Shown piece after piece: positions 29,491-37,096 of a stretch of DNA of 47,040 nucleotides (position 1 is the stretch's first letter; every line of letters begins with the position of its first letter). The DNA comes from an uncultured Planctomycetota bacterium (GTDB taxonomy: Bacteria > JAJVIF01 > JAPKYR01 > CAZSPL01). The stretch lies in NCBI GenBank assembly GCA_964608735.1, contig CAZSPL010000006.1, positions 1 to 47,040 of the forward strand, written 5' to 3'. The position numbers and the translations under genes were made by a program. The notes under the pieces are model-generated. The model was not told where the DNA came from. It saw only the letters and a program-made list of their open reading frames with translations, and searched no databases.

Positions 29491-30375
29491 TTACGATTTA
29501 TTTTTCAGCGTGTTATAAAATTCAAATGCGTCTTTCGGTTTTGCGTTTTCGTGGACGACCTTCCGCACCGCTTGAATCATCGCGACCGGGTCGTCTGCCT
29601 GGAAGATGTTGCGTCCCATGTCCACCCCGGCGGCGCCTTCGTTGATCGCGCGGTACGCCATGGTGAGCGCGTCAAGCTCGGGAATCTTCTTCCCACCCGC
29701 GATGACGATGGGCACCGGGCATCCGGCGGTGACGGTCTCGAATCCATCCTCGACATAATAGGTCTTCAGATATGTCGCGCCGAGTTCGGCGCACATGCGG
29801 GTTGCGAGGCGCATGTATTTCGCATCGCGCGTCATCTGCTTGCCGACAGCCGTGACCGCGAGCGTCGCGATGCCGACCGAATTTCCCATGTCGACGAGCT
29901 GCGTCATATTGTTGACCGACTGTGTTTCATATTCACTGCCGATGAAAACCTGCACCGCCATCGCGGCGGCATTGAGGCGGATGGCTTCATCGATATCGAG
30001 CGCGATGTGTTCGTTGGAGATGTCGTCCTGGAGGATACTCGGCCCGCCGCTGGCGCGCAGCACGATGCCGCGCGTGTATGTCGGCGGGATTATCGAGCGC
30101 AGGATGCCGCGCGTGAGCATCAGCGTGTCGGCATACGGGATGAGCGGGAGGATGGTGACGTCGATACGTTCGAGTCCCGTGGTGGGGCCCTGAAAATAGC
30201 CGTGGTCGAACGCGAGCATCACGGTGCGTCCGCTCGCGGGGTTGAAGATGTTCGACATGCGGTTCTTCAGTCCCCAGTCGACGTTGTTCAGTCCCTTGAG
30301 GAAGAAGGATTCGCTCTTCGCGGGGATGTCGGTGTAGAAATTTTTCTCTTCCCGGGCGCCGTCGATATCTGCCAT
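29491..30375 (-). CDS. lsrF: LsrF-type class I aldolase family protein (3-hydroxy-5-phosphonooxypentane-2,4-dione thiolase-like; DhnA/FbaB superfamily)
   Basis: AAGGAGG RBS. Aligns end to end with my recollection of E. coli LsrF, with long identical blocks: [75 protein letters not shown]. Confidence 0.88.
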
Positions 30376-30425
30376 GGTACGGTCCTCCTTGCGGCGATGA
30401 TGCAGGGGGGATATTGTACCACAGG

Positions 30426-30515
30426 AAAAAAGTAGGGACAGTCACCTGTTTCGCTCATTGCACTACGGGTTATCGTATATCTTCGTGCGAAACAGGTGAC
30501 TGTCCCTACTTTTTT
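30426..30515. repeat. Perfect 28-bp inverted repeat, the reference copy of a terminator-like palindromic repeat family
   Basis: AAAAAGTAGGGACAGTCACCTGTTTCGC (30426/7-30454) pairs with GCGAAACAGGTGACTGTCCCTACTTTTT (30487-30515) across a 32-nt loop. It is A-tract/U-tract flanked, so it could terminate in either orientation. It sits 1 nt from the stop codon (30517) of the 690-aa gene. Confidence 0.85.
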
Positions 30516-30516
30516 C

Positions 30517-32544
30517 TTACCACAATCCGTTGTCGAGCAATTTCATCAGGAAGGCATCCTCTTCGCCGTTTGAAATGAATTCCGAAATACCCTCGCCGTT
30601 GTCGAGGTCGATTTCGTTGGTGAATGTCCCGACGAAGAAAATTTCGCCCCGCGCGTTCAATGCGATATCCCCGGCGAAATCATCCCCATCGCCGCCCCAT
30701 GTTTCCATCCACAGGTGATTGCCGAGCGGGTCGAACCTTGTGAGGAAGATATCACTCGCGCCGTTGGATGTGTACATTTCGGTATCCGGGCCCGTGTCCA
30801 GATCGACTTCATCTTGAAAACGGCCCGATGTGTAAAGGTCCCCGCTGCTGTCGACCGCCATGAAATGAGCTGAAAGAATATCGGTACCCATCTCCGAATT
30901 GAACCAGATGCGGGTCCATTGATAATGCCCGTCCGAGTCGTAGCGGCATATGTACGGGCTGTCGAAGAAACCCGAGGTATAGATGTCCTCGCCGGGACCG
31001 GGGTCGAAATCGGCGTCATACATGAATGAACCCGCGACATAGACATCGCCGGATGAGCCGGCCGCGACATTCATTCCCCATGCATTGCCGGTGTCGCCCC
31101 AATTTACGCCCCACATGTAATCGCCGTCGAGATCGAATTTGCTGAGGTACGCATTGCCGTCGTAGCTTTGGCATGTGTGTTCATCGACGCCCGCACCGGG
31201 ATCAAGGTCGACCGTTTTATTGAGTGCTCCCGTAATGTAAATGTATGCGGAGCCGTCATACGCCGCCGTCCTTGTGTTGGTATGAGCGTTTGTGCCTCCC
31301 CATGTGAGCGTCCAGATTTGTCCGCCGCCGGGATCGAATTTGCTCAGGAAGGCGTCCTCAAAACCGATGGGTGCCCGCTCATCGACACCGGGACCCGGAT
31401 CGAGGTCGATGGCGCCGTAATAGGTGCCGCATAAGTAAAGGTCGTCGGCGCCGTCCGTGCAAAGGCCGTACGCGACATCCTGCATGCTGTTTCCCCATAC
31501 CAGTACCCGTTGATAGTTACCGGAGCTGTCGTATTTGCAGACATAGCCATCGCCCCATGTACCTTCCTGCGTGTACGAGTCCACGCCGGGGCCGGGGTCG
31601 AAATCGACCGTGCCGATGAACTGGCCGCCTATGTAGACATCGCCCATGGAATCGACGGCGATTGCGTTCACCGGCGTACGTCCACCGCCCCATGTGCGAG
31701 CCCAGAGGAAATTCCCTTCGCCGTCGAACTTGCTGATGAACGAGTCGTATTCTCCCTGGACCGTGTGCTCATCGATGCCGGGACCGGGATCAAAATCGGT
31801 CATTGAGGTGAATATTCCCGCCACGTAGATATTGCCGGTGCCGTCGGTCGCGACGCAGTCCGGGAAATCCGAGCCCTCCCCACCCCATGTGACGGCCCAT
31901 CCGGGAAGGATGATATTCTCGATGATGATATCTTTCGTCTTCTCGACAGGGCCGTAGTTGTCGGATGTCACCACGGCCTTTATTTCCACCGGCGTATCGG
32001 CATTGACTTCGCCCGCGGTAAAAAGAGTGGCGGGCGATGCGGGGCTTTCAAACAATCCCGCGCCGGGAGGACTGCATTGCCACTCGTAAACAATGCCGCT
32101 GTCGCCCTCAGCCGATACGCCGAACTCACCCGATGTGTTCTCTTCGAGCGCATCCGGGCCGTCGATGTCGCTTACCGCGAGAAGCGAAGTATCGATTATC
32201 CTGACATCCCGGGTTTTGATTACGGGCTCGAATTCATTTGCCGAAACGACGACTCTTAGTTGTATGGGGGTATCGGAAGTCACCGTTCCCGCCGTAAAGA
32301 TTGTCTTCGCTCTGTCGGGATTCTTGAATCGCCCGGCGGAAGGCGGATTGACGGTCCAGAAGTATCCGACATCCGTGCCGGTGACGGGATGGATAAAATA
32401 GGTCACGCTGGAATACTCATCGATTTCGGCGGGGCCTTCGATGGCGCCGACGACGGGGATTTTGCCCCCGTCGCATGCCCACAAGCCCGCGCAAGGGAGC
32501 AGTATGGCCAGGGACAGTAGCAGCAGCCTTGATACCCTACACAT
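30517..32544 (-). CDS. SBBP-type seven-bladed beta-propeller lipoprotein with two N-terminal Ig/PKD-like domains
   Basis: Start at ATG 32544, with GGAGG 6 nt upstream. MCRVSRLLLLSLAILLPCAGLWAC lipobox. Two roughly 95-aa repeats (GP-E-DE..., ...TAG-V--DTP-----VV-S-----V-KT-D--I). Then seven repeats of W..TWGG...D....A.D..G..Y..G.F....DFDPGPG.DE.T..G..D.F..K.D..G. Confidence 0.8.
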   Translation of the reverse strand: MCRVSRLLLLSLAILLPCAGLWACDGGKIPVVGAIEGPAEIDEYSSVTYFIHPVTGTDVGYFWTVNPPSAGRFKNPDRAKTIFTAGTVTSDTPIQLRVVVSANEFEPVIKTRDVRIIDTSLLAVSDIDGPDALEENTSGEFGVSAEGDSGIVYEWQCSPPGAGLFESPASPATLFTAGEVNADTPVEIKAVVTSDNYGPVEKTKDIIIENIILPGWAVTWGGEGSDFPDCVATDGTGNIYVAGIFTSMTDFDPGPGIDEHTVQGEYDSFISKFDGEGNFLWARTWGGGRTPVNAIAVDSMGDVYIGGQFIGTVDFDPGPGVDSYTQEGTWGDGYVCKYDSSGNYQRVLVWGNSMQDVAYGLCTDGADDLYLCGTYYGAIDLDPGPGVDERAPIGFEDAFLSKFDPGGGQIWTLTWGGTNAHTNTRTAAYDGSAYIYITGALNKTVDLDPGAGVDEHTCQSYDGNAYLSKFDLDGDYMWGVNWGDTGNAWGMNVAAGSSGDVYVAGSFMYDADFDPGPGEDIYTSGFFDSPYICRYDSDGHYQWTRIWFNSEMGTDILSAHFMAVDSSGDLYTSGRFQDEVDLDTGPDTEMYTSNGASDIFLTRFDPLGNHLWMETWGGDGDDFAGDIALNARGEIFFVGTFTNEIDLDNGEGISEFISNGEEDAFLMKLLDNGLW

Positions 32545-32593
32545 AACCAGCCTCCGGAATTCGAGTACTTCAAATATACCACCAAACAAACCG

Positions 32594-32650
32594 AAAAGCA
32601 GGGAGTTGCGAACGACGCCTTAAGAACACTCGGTGACTGTCCCTACTTTT
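32594..32650. repeat. Degenerate copy of the palindromic repeat family
   Basis: The right arm CGGTGACTGTCCCTACTTTT (32631-32650) matches the reference arm, and the stop codon CTA (32643-32645) of the 492-aa gene lies inside it. The left arm is reduced to AAAAGCAGGGA (32594-32604). Confidence 0.5.
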
Positions 32651-34121
32651 CCGGGAACTTCAGAAGGAATGCATCGGGTACGGGAGGCGACCATTCAGGG
32701 TTTCTCGGGCTTTCCCATATGGGCTTGTCGATAATCTGGACAATACCCGTCGCATAGATGTTGTTCGTTGAATCGAGCGCGATGTCGAACGCCGCTTCGT
32801 TCCTGTTCCCAATCCACTGCCCCGCCCAGAGGAATTCACCGGCGGGATTGAATTTGCTGATGACGACATCGAGGTCGGTATCGAGACGATATTCGCCATC
32901 GCCGGGATCGAGGTCGACCACTCCCCGCGCGGAGGTGCAGGCATAGACATTGCCCAGGGCGTCGACGGCAAGCGCGCGCGCTTCGATAAAATCATCCCCT
33001 CCCCAGCTCAGGGTGCGGATATAATTGCCCTCTGAGTCGCGGCATGTGAGGTATACGCTCTTTATCCCGCTGCTGTAGTGAATATCCATCTCGCCGCCGA
33101 TGTTGAAATCGATCGGGTCCTTGAACGAGCCGATGACGTATACACGACCGTCGCCCGACACGGCGACGTCCGCGCTCAACTCGTCGCCGTATCCGCCCCA
33201 CGTGCGCCCCCATTCGTATTCGCCGTCCGAATCGAGCTTGACGAGGAATACATCGCTCTTCGCGAATGATGTGTGCGCGTCGGTGCCCGCGCCGGGGTCG
33301 AGGTCGATTGTCGGCGATGAAAAATTACCGGTTACATAAACTCCGCCCGACTTATCCACGGCGATTTTCCTTGGATAATCGGCCCAATCGCCGCCGAACG
33401 ACCGTCCCCACAGGTAGCCGCCGTCCGATGCGAGTTTCAATATGAATATATCGGCGGTGCCGTTGGAGGTGTGTTCGTCGACGCCGTCCGATGGGTCGAG
33501 GTCGATCGTATCCTCGAAACTCCCGGTGATGCGTATCTCGCCGGAAGCATCGACATCCACCGCGAGGCCGTTATCATATCCCGGAGTTCCCCAAGTGTAT
33601 GCCCATTGGAAGATCCCGTCGCCATCGAATTTGGACAGGAATATATCGGTCTGTCCCGACGCGGAGACTTCGAAGGAGCCTTCGCCGGGGTCGAAATCGA
33701 CGAGGCTGGAGAAATTGCCGACGACATATACGCCGCCTTCATCATCGACGGCGACATCATAGCCGCTGTCGCCGAGCCAGTACCCCTCGCCGCCCCAGGT
33801 TCGCGCCCATTGGTAGTTGCCGCCTGAATCGAATTTGCTGAGGTACGAGTCGCTGCCGTCATTTTCCGAGGTTGCATGTATGTCCTCGCCATCGGACGGG
33901 TCGAAATCGGTTTCGCCCGAGAAGTCGCCGGTGACGTAAACGTTTCCGCTGTCGTCGATTGCAAGCTCGATGCCCTCGTCGTACCCGCTATCGCCCCAGA
34001 TCTTCACCCAGTCCTGTGTAACCGCGGGAAACATGTAATCGCTTGTGGAGCATCCAGTTGAAACCGCGAAGAGAAGGAGAACGATCGCCGGGAGGATGAA
34101 GAGTCGTTTGAACATTCGCAT
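32643..34121 (-). CDS. SBBP-type beta-propeller lipoprotein
   Basis: AAGGAG RBS and MRMFKRLFILPAIVLLLFAVSTGC lipobox. Six to seven blades carry the same W.R.[WF]GG / D[FL]DP.[DP]G.D.H.S / D.FL.K.D..G pattern. Confidence 0.85.
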   Translation of the reverse strand: MRMFKRLFILPAIVLLLFAVSTGCSTSDYMFPAVTQDWVKIWGDSGYDEGIELAIDDSGNVYVTGDFSGETDFDPSDGEDIHATSENDGSDSYLSKFDSGGNYQWARTWGGEGYWLGDSGYDVAVDDEGGVYVVGNFSSLVDFDPGEGSFEVSASGQTDIFLSKFDGDGIFQWAYTWGTPGYDNGLAVDVDASGEIRITGSFEDTIDLDPSDGVDEHTSNGTADIFILKLASDGGYLWGRSFGGDWADYPRKIAVDKSGGVYVTGNFSSPTIDLDPGAGTDAHTSFAKSDVFLVKLDSDGEYEWGRTWGGYGDELSADVAVSGDGRVYVIGSFKDPIDFNIGGEMDIHYSSGIKSVYLTCRDSEGNYIRTLSWGGDDFIEARALAVDALGNVYACTSARGVVDLDPGDGEYRLDTDLDVVISKFNPAGEFLWAGQWIGNRNEAAFDIALDSTNNIYATGIVQIIDKPIWESPRNPEWSPPVPDAFLLKFPEK

Positions 34122-34871: not shown

Positions 34872-34898
34872 AGACAGGTGAATGTCCCTGCTTTTTTT
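34872..34898. repeat. Degenerate half-copy of the palindromic repeat family
   Basis: AGACAGGTGAATGTCCCTGCTTTTTTT compares with the reference AACAGGTGACTGTCCCTACTTTTTT. It overlaps the stop codon (34897-34899) of the DUF1847-like gene. Confidence 0.45.
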
Positions 34899-35478
34899 AC
34901 TCGAACTGGCGTTTGATGTATTGCACATAGACCGCGGCGGCGGGGTTGTGGCCGAGCACGCGGTCCTTCGCGATGAGGGTGGTTACCGGCGCCGCCGAAT
35001 GCATGGTGAACAGCGCGTCGTGACCCACGCACAACCCGCAGATGACATTCAGCCCGCAGCCCGCGTCGTTGAGCATCTTCGCCTGGCCAACCGGGTTGCA
35101 CATCACTTCGATATCTTCATCGGGATGAATCTGCTCCAGCGCGAATTCCTTCTTGGCGATGCCGCAATTCTTGCAGCAGATGGAGACGACGTCGAAATGC
35201 CGCGAGAGGATTTCGGCGACCGCCCCGGCTTCCGATGCCAGCCCGATGCAGAACGCGAGGCCGATTTTCTTCACGCCGAGTTCTTTCGCGAAGTAGATGA
35301 TTTCGCCAAGGCGGTTTTCCTTGCGGTAGTGGCGCGCCTCGATTGCCGATGCCGCCCTGAAGAGCGCGTCGATGCGTTCGTCGCGGTACATCCCGCGCAC
35401 CTCATCGGCGACGCCGTAGCAGTCCTTCCCGTTTTTGCATTCCTTCGTTCCGCACTGGGCGCACTTCGCATCGGGCAT
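34897..35478 (-). CDS. Cysteine-rich metal-binding protein, DUF1847-like
   Basis: AAGGAG RBS. N-terminal C-x2-C-x4-C-x5-C cluster (KCAQCGTKECKNGKDC) and later CC-x2-C, C and C-x2-C groups in a roughly 190-aa protein, as I recall for DUF1847. Family call is from memory only. Confidence 0.6.
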   Translation of the reverse strand: MPDAKCAQCGTKECKNGKDCYGVADEVRGMYRDERIDALFRAASAIEARHYRKENRLGEIIYFAKELGVKKIGLAFCIGLASEAGAVAEILSRHFDVVSICCKNCGIAKKEFALEQIHPDEDIEVMCNPVGQAKMLNDAGCGLNVICGLCVGHDALFTMHSAAPVTTLIAKDRVLGHNPAAAVYVQYIKRQFE

Positions 35479-35492
35479 GATGTCGCTCCTTT

Positions 35493-35682
35493 AAAAAAGT
35501 AGGGACAGTGGGCCTGTTAAAAAGTCGGGTAGCGCGTATCTATTCGCACTCTTGTGCGACGGCTTAGCTGTGATGCGCGCATCATTCCTCGCTGCGCTCG
35601 GAACTCCCGTAAAGCGGGAGATAGATACGCGCTACCCGAACGTATGAAATATATTTTCAACAGCCCCACTGTCCCGACTTTT
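35493..35682. repeat. Composite nested palindromic element (outer arms belong to the repeat family; inner 18-bp perfect inverted repeat plus two small hairpins)
   Basis: Outer arms are AAAAAAGTAGGGACAGTGGGCCTGTT (35493-35518) and AACAGCCCCACTGTCCCGACTTTT (35659-35682), with 2 mismatches. Inner arms are CGGGTAGCGCGTATCTAT (35526-35543) and ATAGATACGCGCTACCCG (35621-35638). Small hairpins lie at 35544-35559 and 35604-35620. The element fills the whole gap between the aldolase-II stop and the DUF1847 start. Confidence 0.8.
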
Positions 35683-35683
35683 C

Positions 35684-37096
35684 TTATTGCGTCTCCGGTT
35701 CGTAGAATTCCACGGGCGGGGCGTCGTTCAGGCGATGCGCGAGCGCGACGTCGAGCCGGAATCTCGCGATTGCCTCTCCCGACGACACATGATGCGCCGC
35801 CTGTTCGAGGGTCACGTTCCCGACTCCAATCGCGCCGATTCCCGCGATGAAACACGCCCCCTTGTGCAGGCGGAGCATGTCGAGGACGGCATCATAAGGC
35901 GCGTTCGAGTTGACCAGTCCCACGCGCGGATTGAGATAGACCGCTTCGGCATCGATGGGCTTGACGACCGGATGTTCCGCGCGGCTCGAATAATCGATGG
36001 AGACTGAATTGGGATCGGTGAGGGCATCGATGCCGAACCGCTGGGCGATGAGGGCCATCGATTCGGCCGATGCAAGCGGGCTCATTGTAATCATGCACGC
36101 CTTGTTGTTGGTATCACGATAAATCGTCTTGTGAAGCGCGAGCTCATAATCGTCATCGTCACCGGGTGCGATGGGGATACGCATTATGGATATTTCCAAT
36201 CCCTCCGGGGCCGACGCAAGCGGGCAGTAGAGCATCTCGCCCTCGGTAATCATCTCGCTCATAGAGCCGGTGCCGTAGGGCGAAATCGCCTGGTAGAAAT
36301 TGAACTGCGCGCGCTCCTTGAATGCATCGATCGTCGCGTTGTCCTTCGTATCATACCGGCCCATTTCACCGGGATTGAAACCTTTCACTTTTTGAGGATA
36401 GATTGATTCTCTGCCTTCCCTCCGGATGCGTCGCGCGACGGCGGTCGTGTCGACGCCGCGGAACCGGGCGTTCATGAGGAGTTTGGCGGATGCATCGACG
36501 AGGGTCAACACGTGCAGGCATTCTTCGAGCGATGCGCCGCGGGCGAACGGCCCGTGTCCCTTGACGAGGGTGACACTGTTGTCGGCGAGGTATTTCGGGA
36601 TACGCTTCTCCATCTCGATGGAGCCGACTGGTTCGAGATATGTTCCGGACGGGACTTTGCCCAAAAGCGCCGCGCCGATGAAGTCAACCGGTTGGAAGAT
36701 GAATTCGTCGGTGCCGTCGACTTCGCCTTCATATATGAGGAAATTCTGTTTCTCCTTCGAATCGAACGACACCGAAATCGCCGAGCGGTAATGCGCATGG
36801 ATTGCCGCTTCGACTCCGGTCAGGCTCATGATTCGGCGGTGTATGGTGGATTCGGTCGACGCGCGCGCATCGCCCCAACTCACACGCGAGAATTTCAGCG
36901 GTACGATGTCGCTCCTGATAAGCGCGCCGATTTGCGCCCCCGACGCGGTGAGGTGGAATGTGTCGCGGTCTACGGGATCGCGCATGCCGATGTTGCCGCT
37001 GTGGGTATTGTTTCCGAGCGTGAGCATTATCGCGCGCCCGATGTCGCGCATCAGCGGGAAAATCGATTCGACGGGATTTTCAGGGCATACGTTCAT
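35684..37096 (-). CDS. Tandem class II aldolase/adducin-domain protein (intact N-terminal domain, degenerate C-terminal domain)
   Basis: The N-terminal domain matches FucA-type motifs: HSGNIGMRD (compare GNVSVR), LTASGAQ, AAIHAHY (H-x-H metal ligands) and LVKGHGPFARGASLEECL (compare HHGLIA...LEKAL). The second half is aldolase-II-like in length and pattern but lacks H-x-H. Its ATG overlaps the aor stop (ATGA at 37094-37098). Confidence 0.75.
   Translation of the reverse strand: MNVCPENPVESIFPLMRDIGRAIMLTLGNNTHSGNIGMRDPVDRDTFHLTASGAQIGALIRSDIVPLKFSRVSWGDARASTESTIHRRIMSLTGVEAAIHAHYRSAISVSFDSKEKQNFLIYEGEVDGTDEFIFQPVDFIGAALLGKVPSGTYLEPVGSIEMEKRIPKYLADNSVTLVKGHGPFARGASLEECLHVLTLVDASAKLLMNARFRGVDTTAVARRIRREGRESIYPQKVKGFNPGEMGRYDTKDNATIDAFKERAQFNFYQAISPYGTGSMSEMITEGEMLYCPLASAPEGLEISIMRIPIAPGDDDDYELALHKTIYRDTNNKACMITMSPLASAESMALIAQRFGIDALTDPNSVSIDYSSRAEHPVVKPIDAEAVYLNPRVGLVNSNAPYDAVLDMLRLHKGACFIAGIGAIGVGNVTLEQAAHHVSSGEAIARFRLDVALAHRLNDAPPVEFYEPETQ

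Follow-up and report, generated by a model that had tools for sequence, protein, structure and literature searches.

Four minus-strand genes in the 47,040-nucleotide stretch analysed here (the window, contig C6 of genome G000) end at palindromes that resemble one another in sequence as well as in shape. This raises the question of what the palindromes are and how copies of one sequence came to stand at the stop codons of different genes. The initial annotation had suggested either an element akin to repetitive extragenic palindromes (REPs) or miniature inverted-repeat transposable elements (MITEs) that spreads to gene ends, or a binding site for a dedicated protein, layered on terminator function. 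We consider it likely that the window palindromes are copies of a family of the REP/REPIN type (REPINs being REP doublets forming hairpins) tied to Y1 enzymes of the REP-associated tyrosine transposase (RAYT) type. The family, its anatomy, its placement, the absence of a target-site duplication and the RAYT genes flanked by the repeat in other genomes were observed directly. G000 comprises 3.89 Mb in 335 contigs, with 55% GC and an estimated completeness of 91.7%.

Anatomy of the four window sites

On re-reading of coordinates and inverted repeats, all four palindromes were present where they had been placed, each with an end on or beside the stop of a minus-strand gene. The sites and two of the stops are as follows.

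30425..30516, no strand assigned: site 1, a full, REPIN-like dimer with GTAG heads outwards; arms 30425-30454 and 30487-30516, loop 30455-30486
30517..30519, minus strand: TAA stop of a 690-aa repeat protein, directly adjoining the palindrome
32594..32650, no strand assigned: site 2, an internally deleted dimer; right arm 32628-32650, left end AAAAGCAGGGAG degenerate
32643..32645, minus strand: stop of the SBBP propeller gene 32643..34121, a TAG within the GTAGGG of the element's GTAG head
34872..34898, minus strand: site 3, a lone degenerate REP unit, AAAAAGCAGGGACATTCACCTGTC, with 2-3 mismatches
35493..35684, no strand assigned: site 4, a composite copy; outer type-3 arms 35495-35523 and 35654-35682 with the family head

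The distances from the element core to the stops at 30517, 32643, 34897 and 35684 are 5, -6, 3 and 3 nt, respectively. The 14-mer core, AAAGTAGGGACAGT, occurs six times in the window at up to 2 mismatches, against 0.16 expected, and six was reached by none of 100 shuffles.

Site 1 is a perfect inverted repeat, as first described, although its arms are 30 bp long and not 28 bp; in an inverted-repeat search of the window the two 30-nt arms were 100% complementary and 32 nt apart. Its predicted RNA fold has a minimum free energy of -66.8 kcal/mol (z = -10.7), and it is a member of the 25-copy type-1 alignment described below. The palindrome occupies the gap from the stop of the open reading frame (ORF) 30517..32589 (minus strand) to the promoter region of a DeoC/LsrF-like gene, 29491..30375 (minus strand). 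At site 2, the 19-nt core of the right arm (32632-32650) matches the core of site 1 exactly. Since the left arm beside this intact core is degenerate, we regard site 2 as a dimer with an internal deletion, and its interior, TTCTTAAGGCGTCG, is similar to the type-2 interior. The TAG of the head serves as the stop at 32643, so that the element itself encodes the end of the SBBP propeller gene, its final Lys codon and its stop. Site 3 begins within or just past the TAA stop (34897-34899) of a DUF1847 gene. Site 4 adjoins the TAA stop (35684-35686) of a class II aldolase gene and has outer arms of 29 nt that are 90% complementary. Nested within them is a perfect 19-bp inverted repeat (35525-35543 and 35621-35639) of a second palindromic family, whose arm AAAAGTCGGGTAGCGCGTATCTAT occurs 20 times genome-wide.

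A dispersed family with conserved arms

All copies in the window fall within 5.3 kb, as had been noted, but the family is not restricted to this stretch. With at most one mismatch, the core AAAGTAGGGACAGT was found 105 times in the 3.89-Mb genome (53 forward, 52 reverse), on more than 60 contigs, while the reversed core, used as a control in the same genome, gave 2 forward and 3 reverse matches. A local duplication artefact, which the initial annotation had held to be a possible outcome of a genome-wide search, is thereby excluded. Allowing two mismatches gave 139 arms, which form 48 plus/minus pairs. Forty-five of these pairs are full elements spanning 65-586 nt, with 25-27 of them at 83-85 nt, and the remaining three, 'tiny' palindromes of 23 nt, belong to a separate family.

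The main class (25-27 copies) is a near-perfect palindrome of about 90 bp with the layout A6-GTAGGGACAGTCACCTGTTTCGC, a loop of about 32 nt, and GCGAAACAGGTGACTGTCCCTAC-T6. Its arm unit of about 24 nt can be given as A4-6-(G/A)TAGGGACAGTCACCT(G/A)TTT; the arm with its TAG head and GGGACAG core is also written AAAATAGGGACAGTCACCTATTTT. The widespread form of the arm, AAAATAGG-GACAGTCA-CCTATTTT, is a small hairpin by itself (24 nt, 8-bp stem), and in the major G000 subtype (GTAG...CCTG) two pairs of this stem are G·T. Two inverted units with their GTAG/ATAG heads outwards (an 'HH dimer') make up the 90-bp palindrome. Besides GTAG, the head variants GCAG, ATAG and GTCG occur in G000, and ATAG is the head in most other genomes. 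The ATAG...CCTATTT subtype differs at mirrored positions.

The loop of the main class is also conserved, and it is found in both orientations relative to the flanks, which indicates that the copies share descent and are not convergent terminators. The suggestion that shared sequence betrays a spreading element is borne out in this respect. RNAalifold, applied to the type-1 alignment, gave 26 consensus pairs, five of them with compensatory changes. Divergence from the type-1 consensus was 5.8% of positions in the arms and 26.9% in the loops, making the arms about 4.6-fold better conserved; since the copies are not independent samples, the Fisher p-value overstates this contrast, which is nevertheless large. 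The most similar pair of copies from separate loci (C290 and C296) has 2 mismatches in 90 positions, a sign of recent copying.

Better conservation of arms than of loops would also be expected if the palindromes were regulatory or terminator sites evolved by the host, shared through binding of a dedicated protein or through common descent of operon ends, with no transposition involved. Under that explanation, however, copies would not be expected beside unrelated genes on more than 60 contigs.

Roughly 14 arms were located no more than about 120 nt from a contig end, which indicates that the repeat breaks the assembly. Such a concentration at contig ends is expected of any assembly-breaking repeat, and together with the long terminal inverted repeats (TIRs) it would suit a classical MITE, that is, an element derived by deletion from a DDE-transposase insertion sequence and mobilised via its TIRs. 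At two pairs of contig ends, C73/C290 and C92/C226, an identical flank stands next to an element, which points to small redundant assembly overlaps, so that a few arms are counted twice. The only Rfam matches were to microRNA-hairpin models and fell short of their gathering scores (42 bits where 84 is required, and 40 where 100 is), and a literature string search for the motif returned only unrelated primer sequences.

Placement at gene ends

Gene positions were obtained with a purpose-built codon-score ORF caller, and the start codons are approximate. A stop codon is faced by 79 of the 139 arms, about 58 of which are no farther than 10 nt from it. The head supplies the stop itself, as its TAG, in 14 cases, and these proteins end in Lys-Lys (KK); because A6-G-TAG reads AAA AAG TAG, this C-terminus is encoded by the element. 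Other stops are mostly TAA or TGA fused to the A-tract. Both convergent genes at C99:9685-9768, coding for a 1550-aa protein and glutaminyl-tRNA synthetase, end in element-encoded Lys-Lys, and further sites with an element TAG stop and Lys-Lys are C36:21475, C44:4039 and C333:568.

Among the 45 full elements, 15 separate convergent genes, 16 stand between the stop of one gene and the start of another, and 6 have a start on either side. Stops on both sides are within 9 nt of the element core at 11 of the convergent pairs, and the element thus takes up essentially the whole spacer. There were no true intragenic copies, every apparent match being due to chance or an ORF-calling artefact. A similar placement was seen in MAGs (metagenome-assembled genomes) labelled as other phyla. 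Among the matches listed there, an open frame of at least 100 codons ends at -5 to +12 nt at 56 of 109 arms, compared with 3.0% of random positions, and in 28 of these 56 the TAG of the head is the stop.

This strict position relative to stop codons again speaks for host-evolved sites. The orientation of the loop does not: relative to the abutting gene it was the same in five cases and opposite in six, and both orientations without bias would not be expected of sites shaped by the host. The lack of bias also speaks against the loop having a strand-specific function as RNA. A target-site duplication was absent at 36 of the 45 full elements, and at the remainder flanking direct repeats occurred at chance frequency, which is evidence against a classical MITE.

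Modular copies and nested palindromes

Arm pairs at greater distances (171-586 bp) have only the outer 15-17 nt in common, and their continuation differs. The type-2 arm continues as GAATGGCGCTTTTTTAAG and the type-3 arm as GGGCCTGTTGAAAAAGTCGGGTAGCG; genome-wide there are about 60 type-1, 29 type-2 and 7 type-3 arms. The longer copies enclose other palindromic families, for example CCGGGTGGCACCCCTTTACCGCGC. Composites of the site 4 type are also present at C1:64669, C51:5297 and C129:8690, which indicates that the composite was copied as a unit. At least four further REP-like families, with 61, 63, 20 and 14 matches, were found in G000.

Between arm pairs separated by up to 586 bp there were nested palindromes only and no transposase. 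A MITE would be expected to retain traces of a parent element, so these 171-586-bp copies count against it, and as far as the assemblies reach a DDE-derived MITE is refuted by the missing duplication and by the lack of a transposase between the arms. The REP part of the earlier proposal therefore fits, while the MITE part does not hold for the DDE type, for which neither a target-site duplication nor a parent insertion sequence was found.

The modular structure suggests another alternative. The shared outer sequence could itself be the target, a short, pre-existing terminator-like hairpin AAAAGTAGGGAC...GTCCCTACTTTT whose loop is a hot spot for insertion of different palindromic elements, in which case unrelated interiors would be expected to have no more than the outer 15-17 nt in common. 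The three arm types, alike only in those outer 15-17 nt, are in keeping with such a target, as are the other REP families often nested inside and the tiny palindromes AAAAGTCGGGACAGTCCCGACTTTT, which occur about 11 times. The tiny palindromes, however, begin with GTCGGG instead of GTAGGG and have a conserved upstream flank of their own, CTTGTGAAAAAAGTAACGG, and for these reasons we assign them to a separate family. Moreover, the conserved block in other phyla is 23 nt long and includes TCACCTATTT; the stretch beyond the outer 15 nt is therefore not variable cargo. RAYT genes in other genomes are also flanked by whole units, as monomers or dimers. Taken together, we judge an insertion hot spot to be very improbable.

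A separate small family, CTTGTGAAAAAAGTAACGGAAAAGTCGGGACAGTCCCGACTTTT, has a conserved 20-nt leader followed by a hairpin with a 7-bp stem between an A-tract and a T-tract. About 11 copies exist, among them those at C5:32108, C10:13754, C92:3277, C1:72177, C57:5262, C23:3498 and C9:9458, and in genome G001 (L008) a RAYT gene has one copy just ahead of it.

Occurrence in other genomes

The phylum to which G000 belongs is represented by 14 genomes, and the repeat was found in four of them, in two taxonomic families; it was not found in nine genomes (completeness 79-99%) of the sister family in the same order. The sister genus, represented by G001, has kept the gene order of the window (aor, aldolase, DUF1847, propellers, deoC). 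None of the four window copies was found in this syntenic region of G001, where other palindromes stand in the same gaps, apart from a possible relic, GACTGTCCCTTAT, ahead of deoC. G001 is the sole orthologous comparison and is too diverged to give exact insertion boundaries. Absence from syntenic sites is a further point against host-evolved sites. Together with the near-identical copies at different loci and the two orientations, it suggests indirectly, from sequence comparison, that the G000 family may have been mobile.

Other searches for orthologous sites gave negative results. Identical-protein look-up with the DUF1847 and DeoC-like proteins found no record, and no relative emerged when contigs were scanned with the aldolase. 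Metagenomes searched with the DeoC-like protein yielded relatives of at most 85% identity, none with the element at that site.

A scan of a sequence collection with AAARTAGGGACAGTYACCTRTTT matched at least 104 stretches. The matches listed come from MAGs labelled Planctomycetota (Phycisphaerae, Sedimentisphaerales, Planctomycetales and others), Verrucomicrobiota, Acidobacteriota (Holophagales), Hydrogenedentota, Sumerlaeota, Fischerbacteria and Deltaproteobacteria. The 23-nt arm thus recurs in MAGs labelled as at least seven phyla, the labels being those of the record titles and all of the genomes being fragmented MAGs. In these other genomes the arm is often a 51-52-bp dimer with a 9-10-nt spacer, or a single unit. 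A distribution that is patchy within the phylum (4 of 14 genomes) and yet reaches MAGs labelled as other phyla is also not what host-evolved sites would predict.

Two details of the comparison with G001 concern the surroundings of the elements. In G001 (L037, G001:C75, 5810-5860) the aldolase stop is followed by GAAAAG and then by an unrelated 16-bp hairpin, GGATGTAACCCACGAA...TTCGTGGGTTACATTC; in the window (35650-35690) GAAAAG is followed by a family arm, so that the same spot behind the stop holds a different palindrome. The second detail is a promoter-like box beside site 1.

30413..30421, minus strand: extended -10-like box TGGTACAAT, read from the sequence and outside the repeat

The box adjoins site 1 downstream, 38 nt ahead of the ATG of the DeoC-like gene, and has a syntenic counterpart, TGTTAGAAT, in G001 (L037, G001:C75, about 10390). 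Its position between a palindrome and the DeoC/LsrF-like gene in both genera suggests that this gene may have its own promoter right after the hairpin.

RAYT-type transposases

Five Y1_Tnp genes are present in G000. Those on C146 and C121 score above the cut-off of the NCBIfam REP-associated tyrosine transposase model (REP_Tyr_transpos), at 98-99 bits. For those on C62 and C34 (group b), REP_Tyr_transpos is the only family matched, at 66-69 bits, below its 80-bit cut-off. The flanking palindromes are particular to each gene: GGGACAGGCCC for C62, GGGGACAGGCAC for C34 and the GGGTGGCACCC family for C146.

The C146 gene (C146:122-733) represents a second REPIN/RAYT system, being flanked by CCGGGTGGCACCCCTTT(A/C)CCGCGC palindromes that have 63 arms genome-wide. 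These palindromes are also nested in long type-2 copies at C4:19055-19398, C41:14408-14699 and C193:2721-2920. The RAYT-like gene at C121:7971-8519 (99.5 bits to NF047646) is flanked by runs of N and tandem GTTTCGGTGACACCCTTGTCCCGAAAC palindromes, and its branch in the RAYT tree is very long, at 3.39 substitutions per site.

A fragment of a different RAYT stands next to the studied family.

C301:2333-2452, minus strand: RAYT remnant, N-terminal 50 codons (…PRIPRIVIPELPHHITQRGN…), of the PHHITQRGN type, as in the RAYTs of G012 and G013

The remnant lies about 40 nt downstream of a solo arm, AAAATTAGGGACAGTCACCTATTATA, with a -10-like box, TATGCTAATACT. Solo arms at C31:23649 and C209:1043 have the same TATTATA...GCAAT tail and no RAYT remnant. 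The 50-codon fragment implies that the cognate enzyme either decayed or failed to assemble; given the roughly 14 arms at contig ends, an intact cognate RAYT of G000 could have been lost in assembly.

Intact RAYT-type genes flanked by the repeat were found in other genomes. One is a RAYT-like gene of 223 aa on contig C34 of G013, a genome of the same class as G000 but of a different family; identical full dimers stand on both sides, and the stop of the gene is inside the element. Dimers on both sides were also read in the sequence around a RAYT-like gene of Phycisphaerae E05-017, and single inverted units on both sides of one in Holophagales UBA2201. In Phycisphaerales HK-STAS-PLAN-13 (L111) the motif brackets a RAYT-like match, by coordinates only. 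The search for an associated RAYT that the initial annotation had advised was therefore successful in related and unrelated genomes, while for this family G000 itself yielded only the 50-codon remnant.

Of the two RAYT groups in the tree, one contains these proteins, and the Phycisphaerae and Holophagales genes are sisters (support 99/98). Searched against the PDB, a profile of the group gave E. coli TnpA-REP (4ER8) as the best match (E = 5.8e-6), ahead of IS200/IS605 TnpA; a PDB search with the G013 RAYT as a single sequence gave no match. The HUH residues N59, H60 and H62, together with Y119 and N123, P124 and V125, are invariant in 16 sequences. Pfam matched Y1_Tnp only, the C-terminal 100 aa having no match at E <=0.1, including Bac_DnaA_C, HTH_23 and HTH_28.

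These genes bear on two of the alternatives. The enzymes flanked by the repeat are Y1 HUH enzymes; with the missing duplication and the lack of a transposase in the longer copies, this makes a classical MITE derived from a DDE-transposase element extremely unlikely. Host-evolved sites, in turn, would be consistent with the lack of an intact cognate RAYT in the G000 assembly, but they leave RAYT genes flanked by the repeat without a reason. Considering this with the unrelated neighbours, the unbiased loops and the distribution among genomes, we regard host-evolved sites as very improbable.

Proposed origin and function

We propose that a RAYT-type Y1 HUH single-strand DNA transposase recognising the arm spreads, or once spread, the family. 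Spread by such an enzyme would explain the lack of a target-site duplication, the two orientations, and the same outer arms with unrelated inner cargo. Copies persist almost only at gene 3' ends, where the head closes reading frames: AAA AAG TAG supplies KK and a stop in one frame, and T or TG joined to the A-tract supplies TAA or TGA in others. With the frame closed by the head, the spacer separating ORF and element can be lost.

Once transcribed, the stem followed by U6 would form a hairpin at the transcript end in either direction, which may serve as a terminator, as a 3'-end stabiliser, or as both. Stem and T6 are indeed present on both strands. Judged by shape and placement, there is about an even chance that copies, once transcribed, terminate transcripts in both directions or stabilise their 3' ends.

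Several observations weigh against the REP/REPIN interpretation or its functional extension. Among the assembled contigs of G000 there is no intact RAYT flanked by the studied family, and the two intact group-b RAYTs (C62 and C34) are flanked by the related yet different repeats GGGACAGGCCC and GGGGACAGGCAC. No tight clade is formed by the RAYTs that the family flanks, which show about 42-46% identity to one another and to unflanked RAYTs alike. Classical GTAG REPs have an unpaired head, whereas here the GTAG is base-paired, both in the dimer and in the monomer form that is widespread. Finally, a 30-bp stem with a 32-nt loop is atypical for an intrinsic terminator, and a terminator scan made no call, its loop limit of 3-8 nt being too small for these hairpins.

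The greater conservation of arms than of loops has three possible sources: copying of only those copies with intact arms, selection by the host on the hairpin, or a sequence need of the enzyme. A more far-reaching proposal, which we put forward tentatively and think rather unlikely, is that the 23-nt arm is an ancient recognition sequence common to several phyla, domesticated as a gene-end module (a two-way terminator or 3'-end stabiliser and a donor of stop and KK) and selected by the host even without a cognate RAYT. Domestication would account for arms that are about 94% identical to the consensus beside loops at about 73%, and for a DNA motif that is conserved better than the accompanying transposases, which are about 43% identical.

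Comparison with known systems

REPs of E. coli, which form bacterial interspersed mosaic elements (BIMEs), resemble the studied family in that they lie close behind stops and in the enzyme, TnpA-REP (4ER8) being the best match by profile. The sequences are unrelated, however, and E. coli units are imperfect, 35-40 nt long and arranged in BIME clusters, not as single perfect 90-bp palindromes. REPs within about 15 nt of a stop codon reportedly reduce translation of the upstream gene. With bidirectional intrinsic terminators the family shares an A-tract, a GC-containing stem and a T-tract that are symmetric on both strands, and the element amounts to nearly the whole spacer at 11 convergent gene pairs. 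It differs from them in its far larger stem and loop, and in that the copies have sequence as well as shape in common.

The closest known systems are the GTAG-tagged REP families, described in eight phyla including Planctomycetes and Verrucomicrobia (Di Nocera, De Gregorio & Rocco 2013, PMC3733652). Their 'HH' dimers have the GTAG termini outside, they lie between convergent genes less than 20 bp from both ORF ends, the GTAG termini often supply the TAG stop, and several REP families and RAYTs can be present in one genome (PMC3733652). Compared with these dimers and with REPINs (Bertels & Rainey 2011, PMC3116915), the studied family has the same kind of short palindromic unit with a GTAG/ATAG head, occurs in tens to about 100 extragenic copies, and forms inverted heads-out dimers that fold into a long hairpin. 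It likewise coexists with several REP families and several RAYT genes, lies next to ORF 3' ends of convergent or same-direction genes with the head TAG used as a stop, and flanks RAYT genes, in its case in other genomes. It differs in that the head is base-paired and not an unpaired tail, in the unusually long, perfect 30-bp stem of the dimer with its conserved 32-nt loop, and in that G000 has no intact cognate RAYT assembled. Its 23-nt arm is found under at least seven phylum labels, whereas described REP families are mostly species- or genus-specific.

RAYT-like 'TIRYT' genes (the 'TIRtron') are flanked by inverted repeats sharing GGGGWSAS (PMC3733652) and correspond to RAYT subclass 2.1 (Quentin et al. 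2018, PMC6006769), equivalent to Bertels group 1. The RAYT-like proteins described here are similarly long (about 220 aa), with a C-terminal extension; the flanking-repeat cores AGGGACAG and GGGGACAG fit GGGGWSAS at 7-8 of 8 positions; both occur in Acidobacteria and Planctomycetes; and the flanking repeats can be moderately abundant dimer families. Unlike TIRYTs, they have no Pfam helix-turn-helix match in the C-terminal extension, so they are candidate members of the subclass. The studied repeat family is also larger and more REPIN-like than the TIR families of TIRYTs.

The features noted first in the window are all published properties of the GTAG-REP class, of which the family itself is a new example. 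With it, REPIN/RAYT-type systems, which have been studied almost exclusively in Proteobacteria, reach a candidate phylum known from 14 species genomes, and REPIN-type repeats are linked to long, C-terminally extended RAYT-like enzymes resembling the TIRYT/subclass-2.1 type, which had been reported to lack REPs. For annotation, it means that dozens of gene ends in G000, including that of glutaminyl-tRNA synthetase, are set by a repeat and not by an ancestral stop codon. What stands out against the published class is the occurrence of the 23-nt arm under at least seven phylum labels, and arms far better conserved than loops. The near-identical arm would mean either that a repeat-transposase pair moves between phyla, or that recognition by the enzyme holds the motif constant. 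Current understanding is not overturned by these results; they add to the known systems a clean, well-delimited new family.

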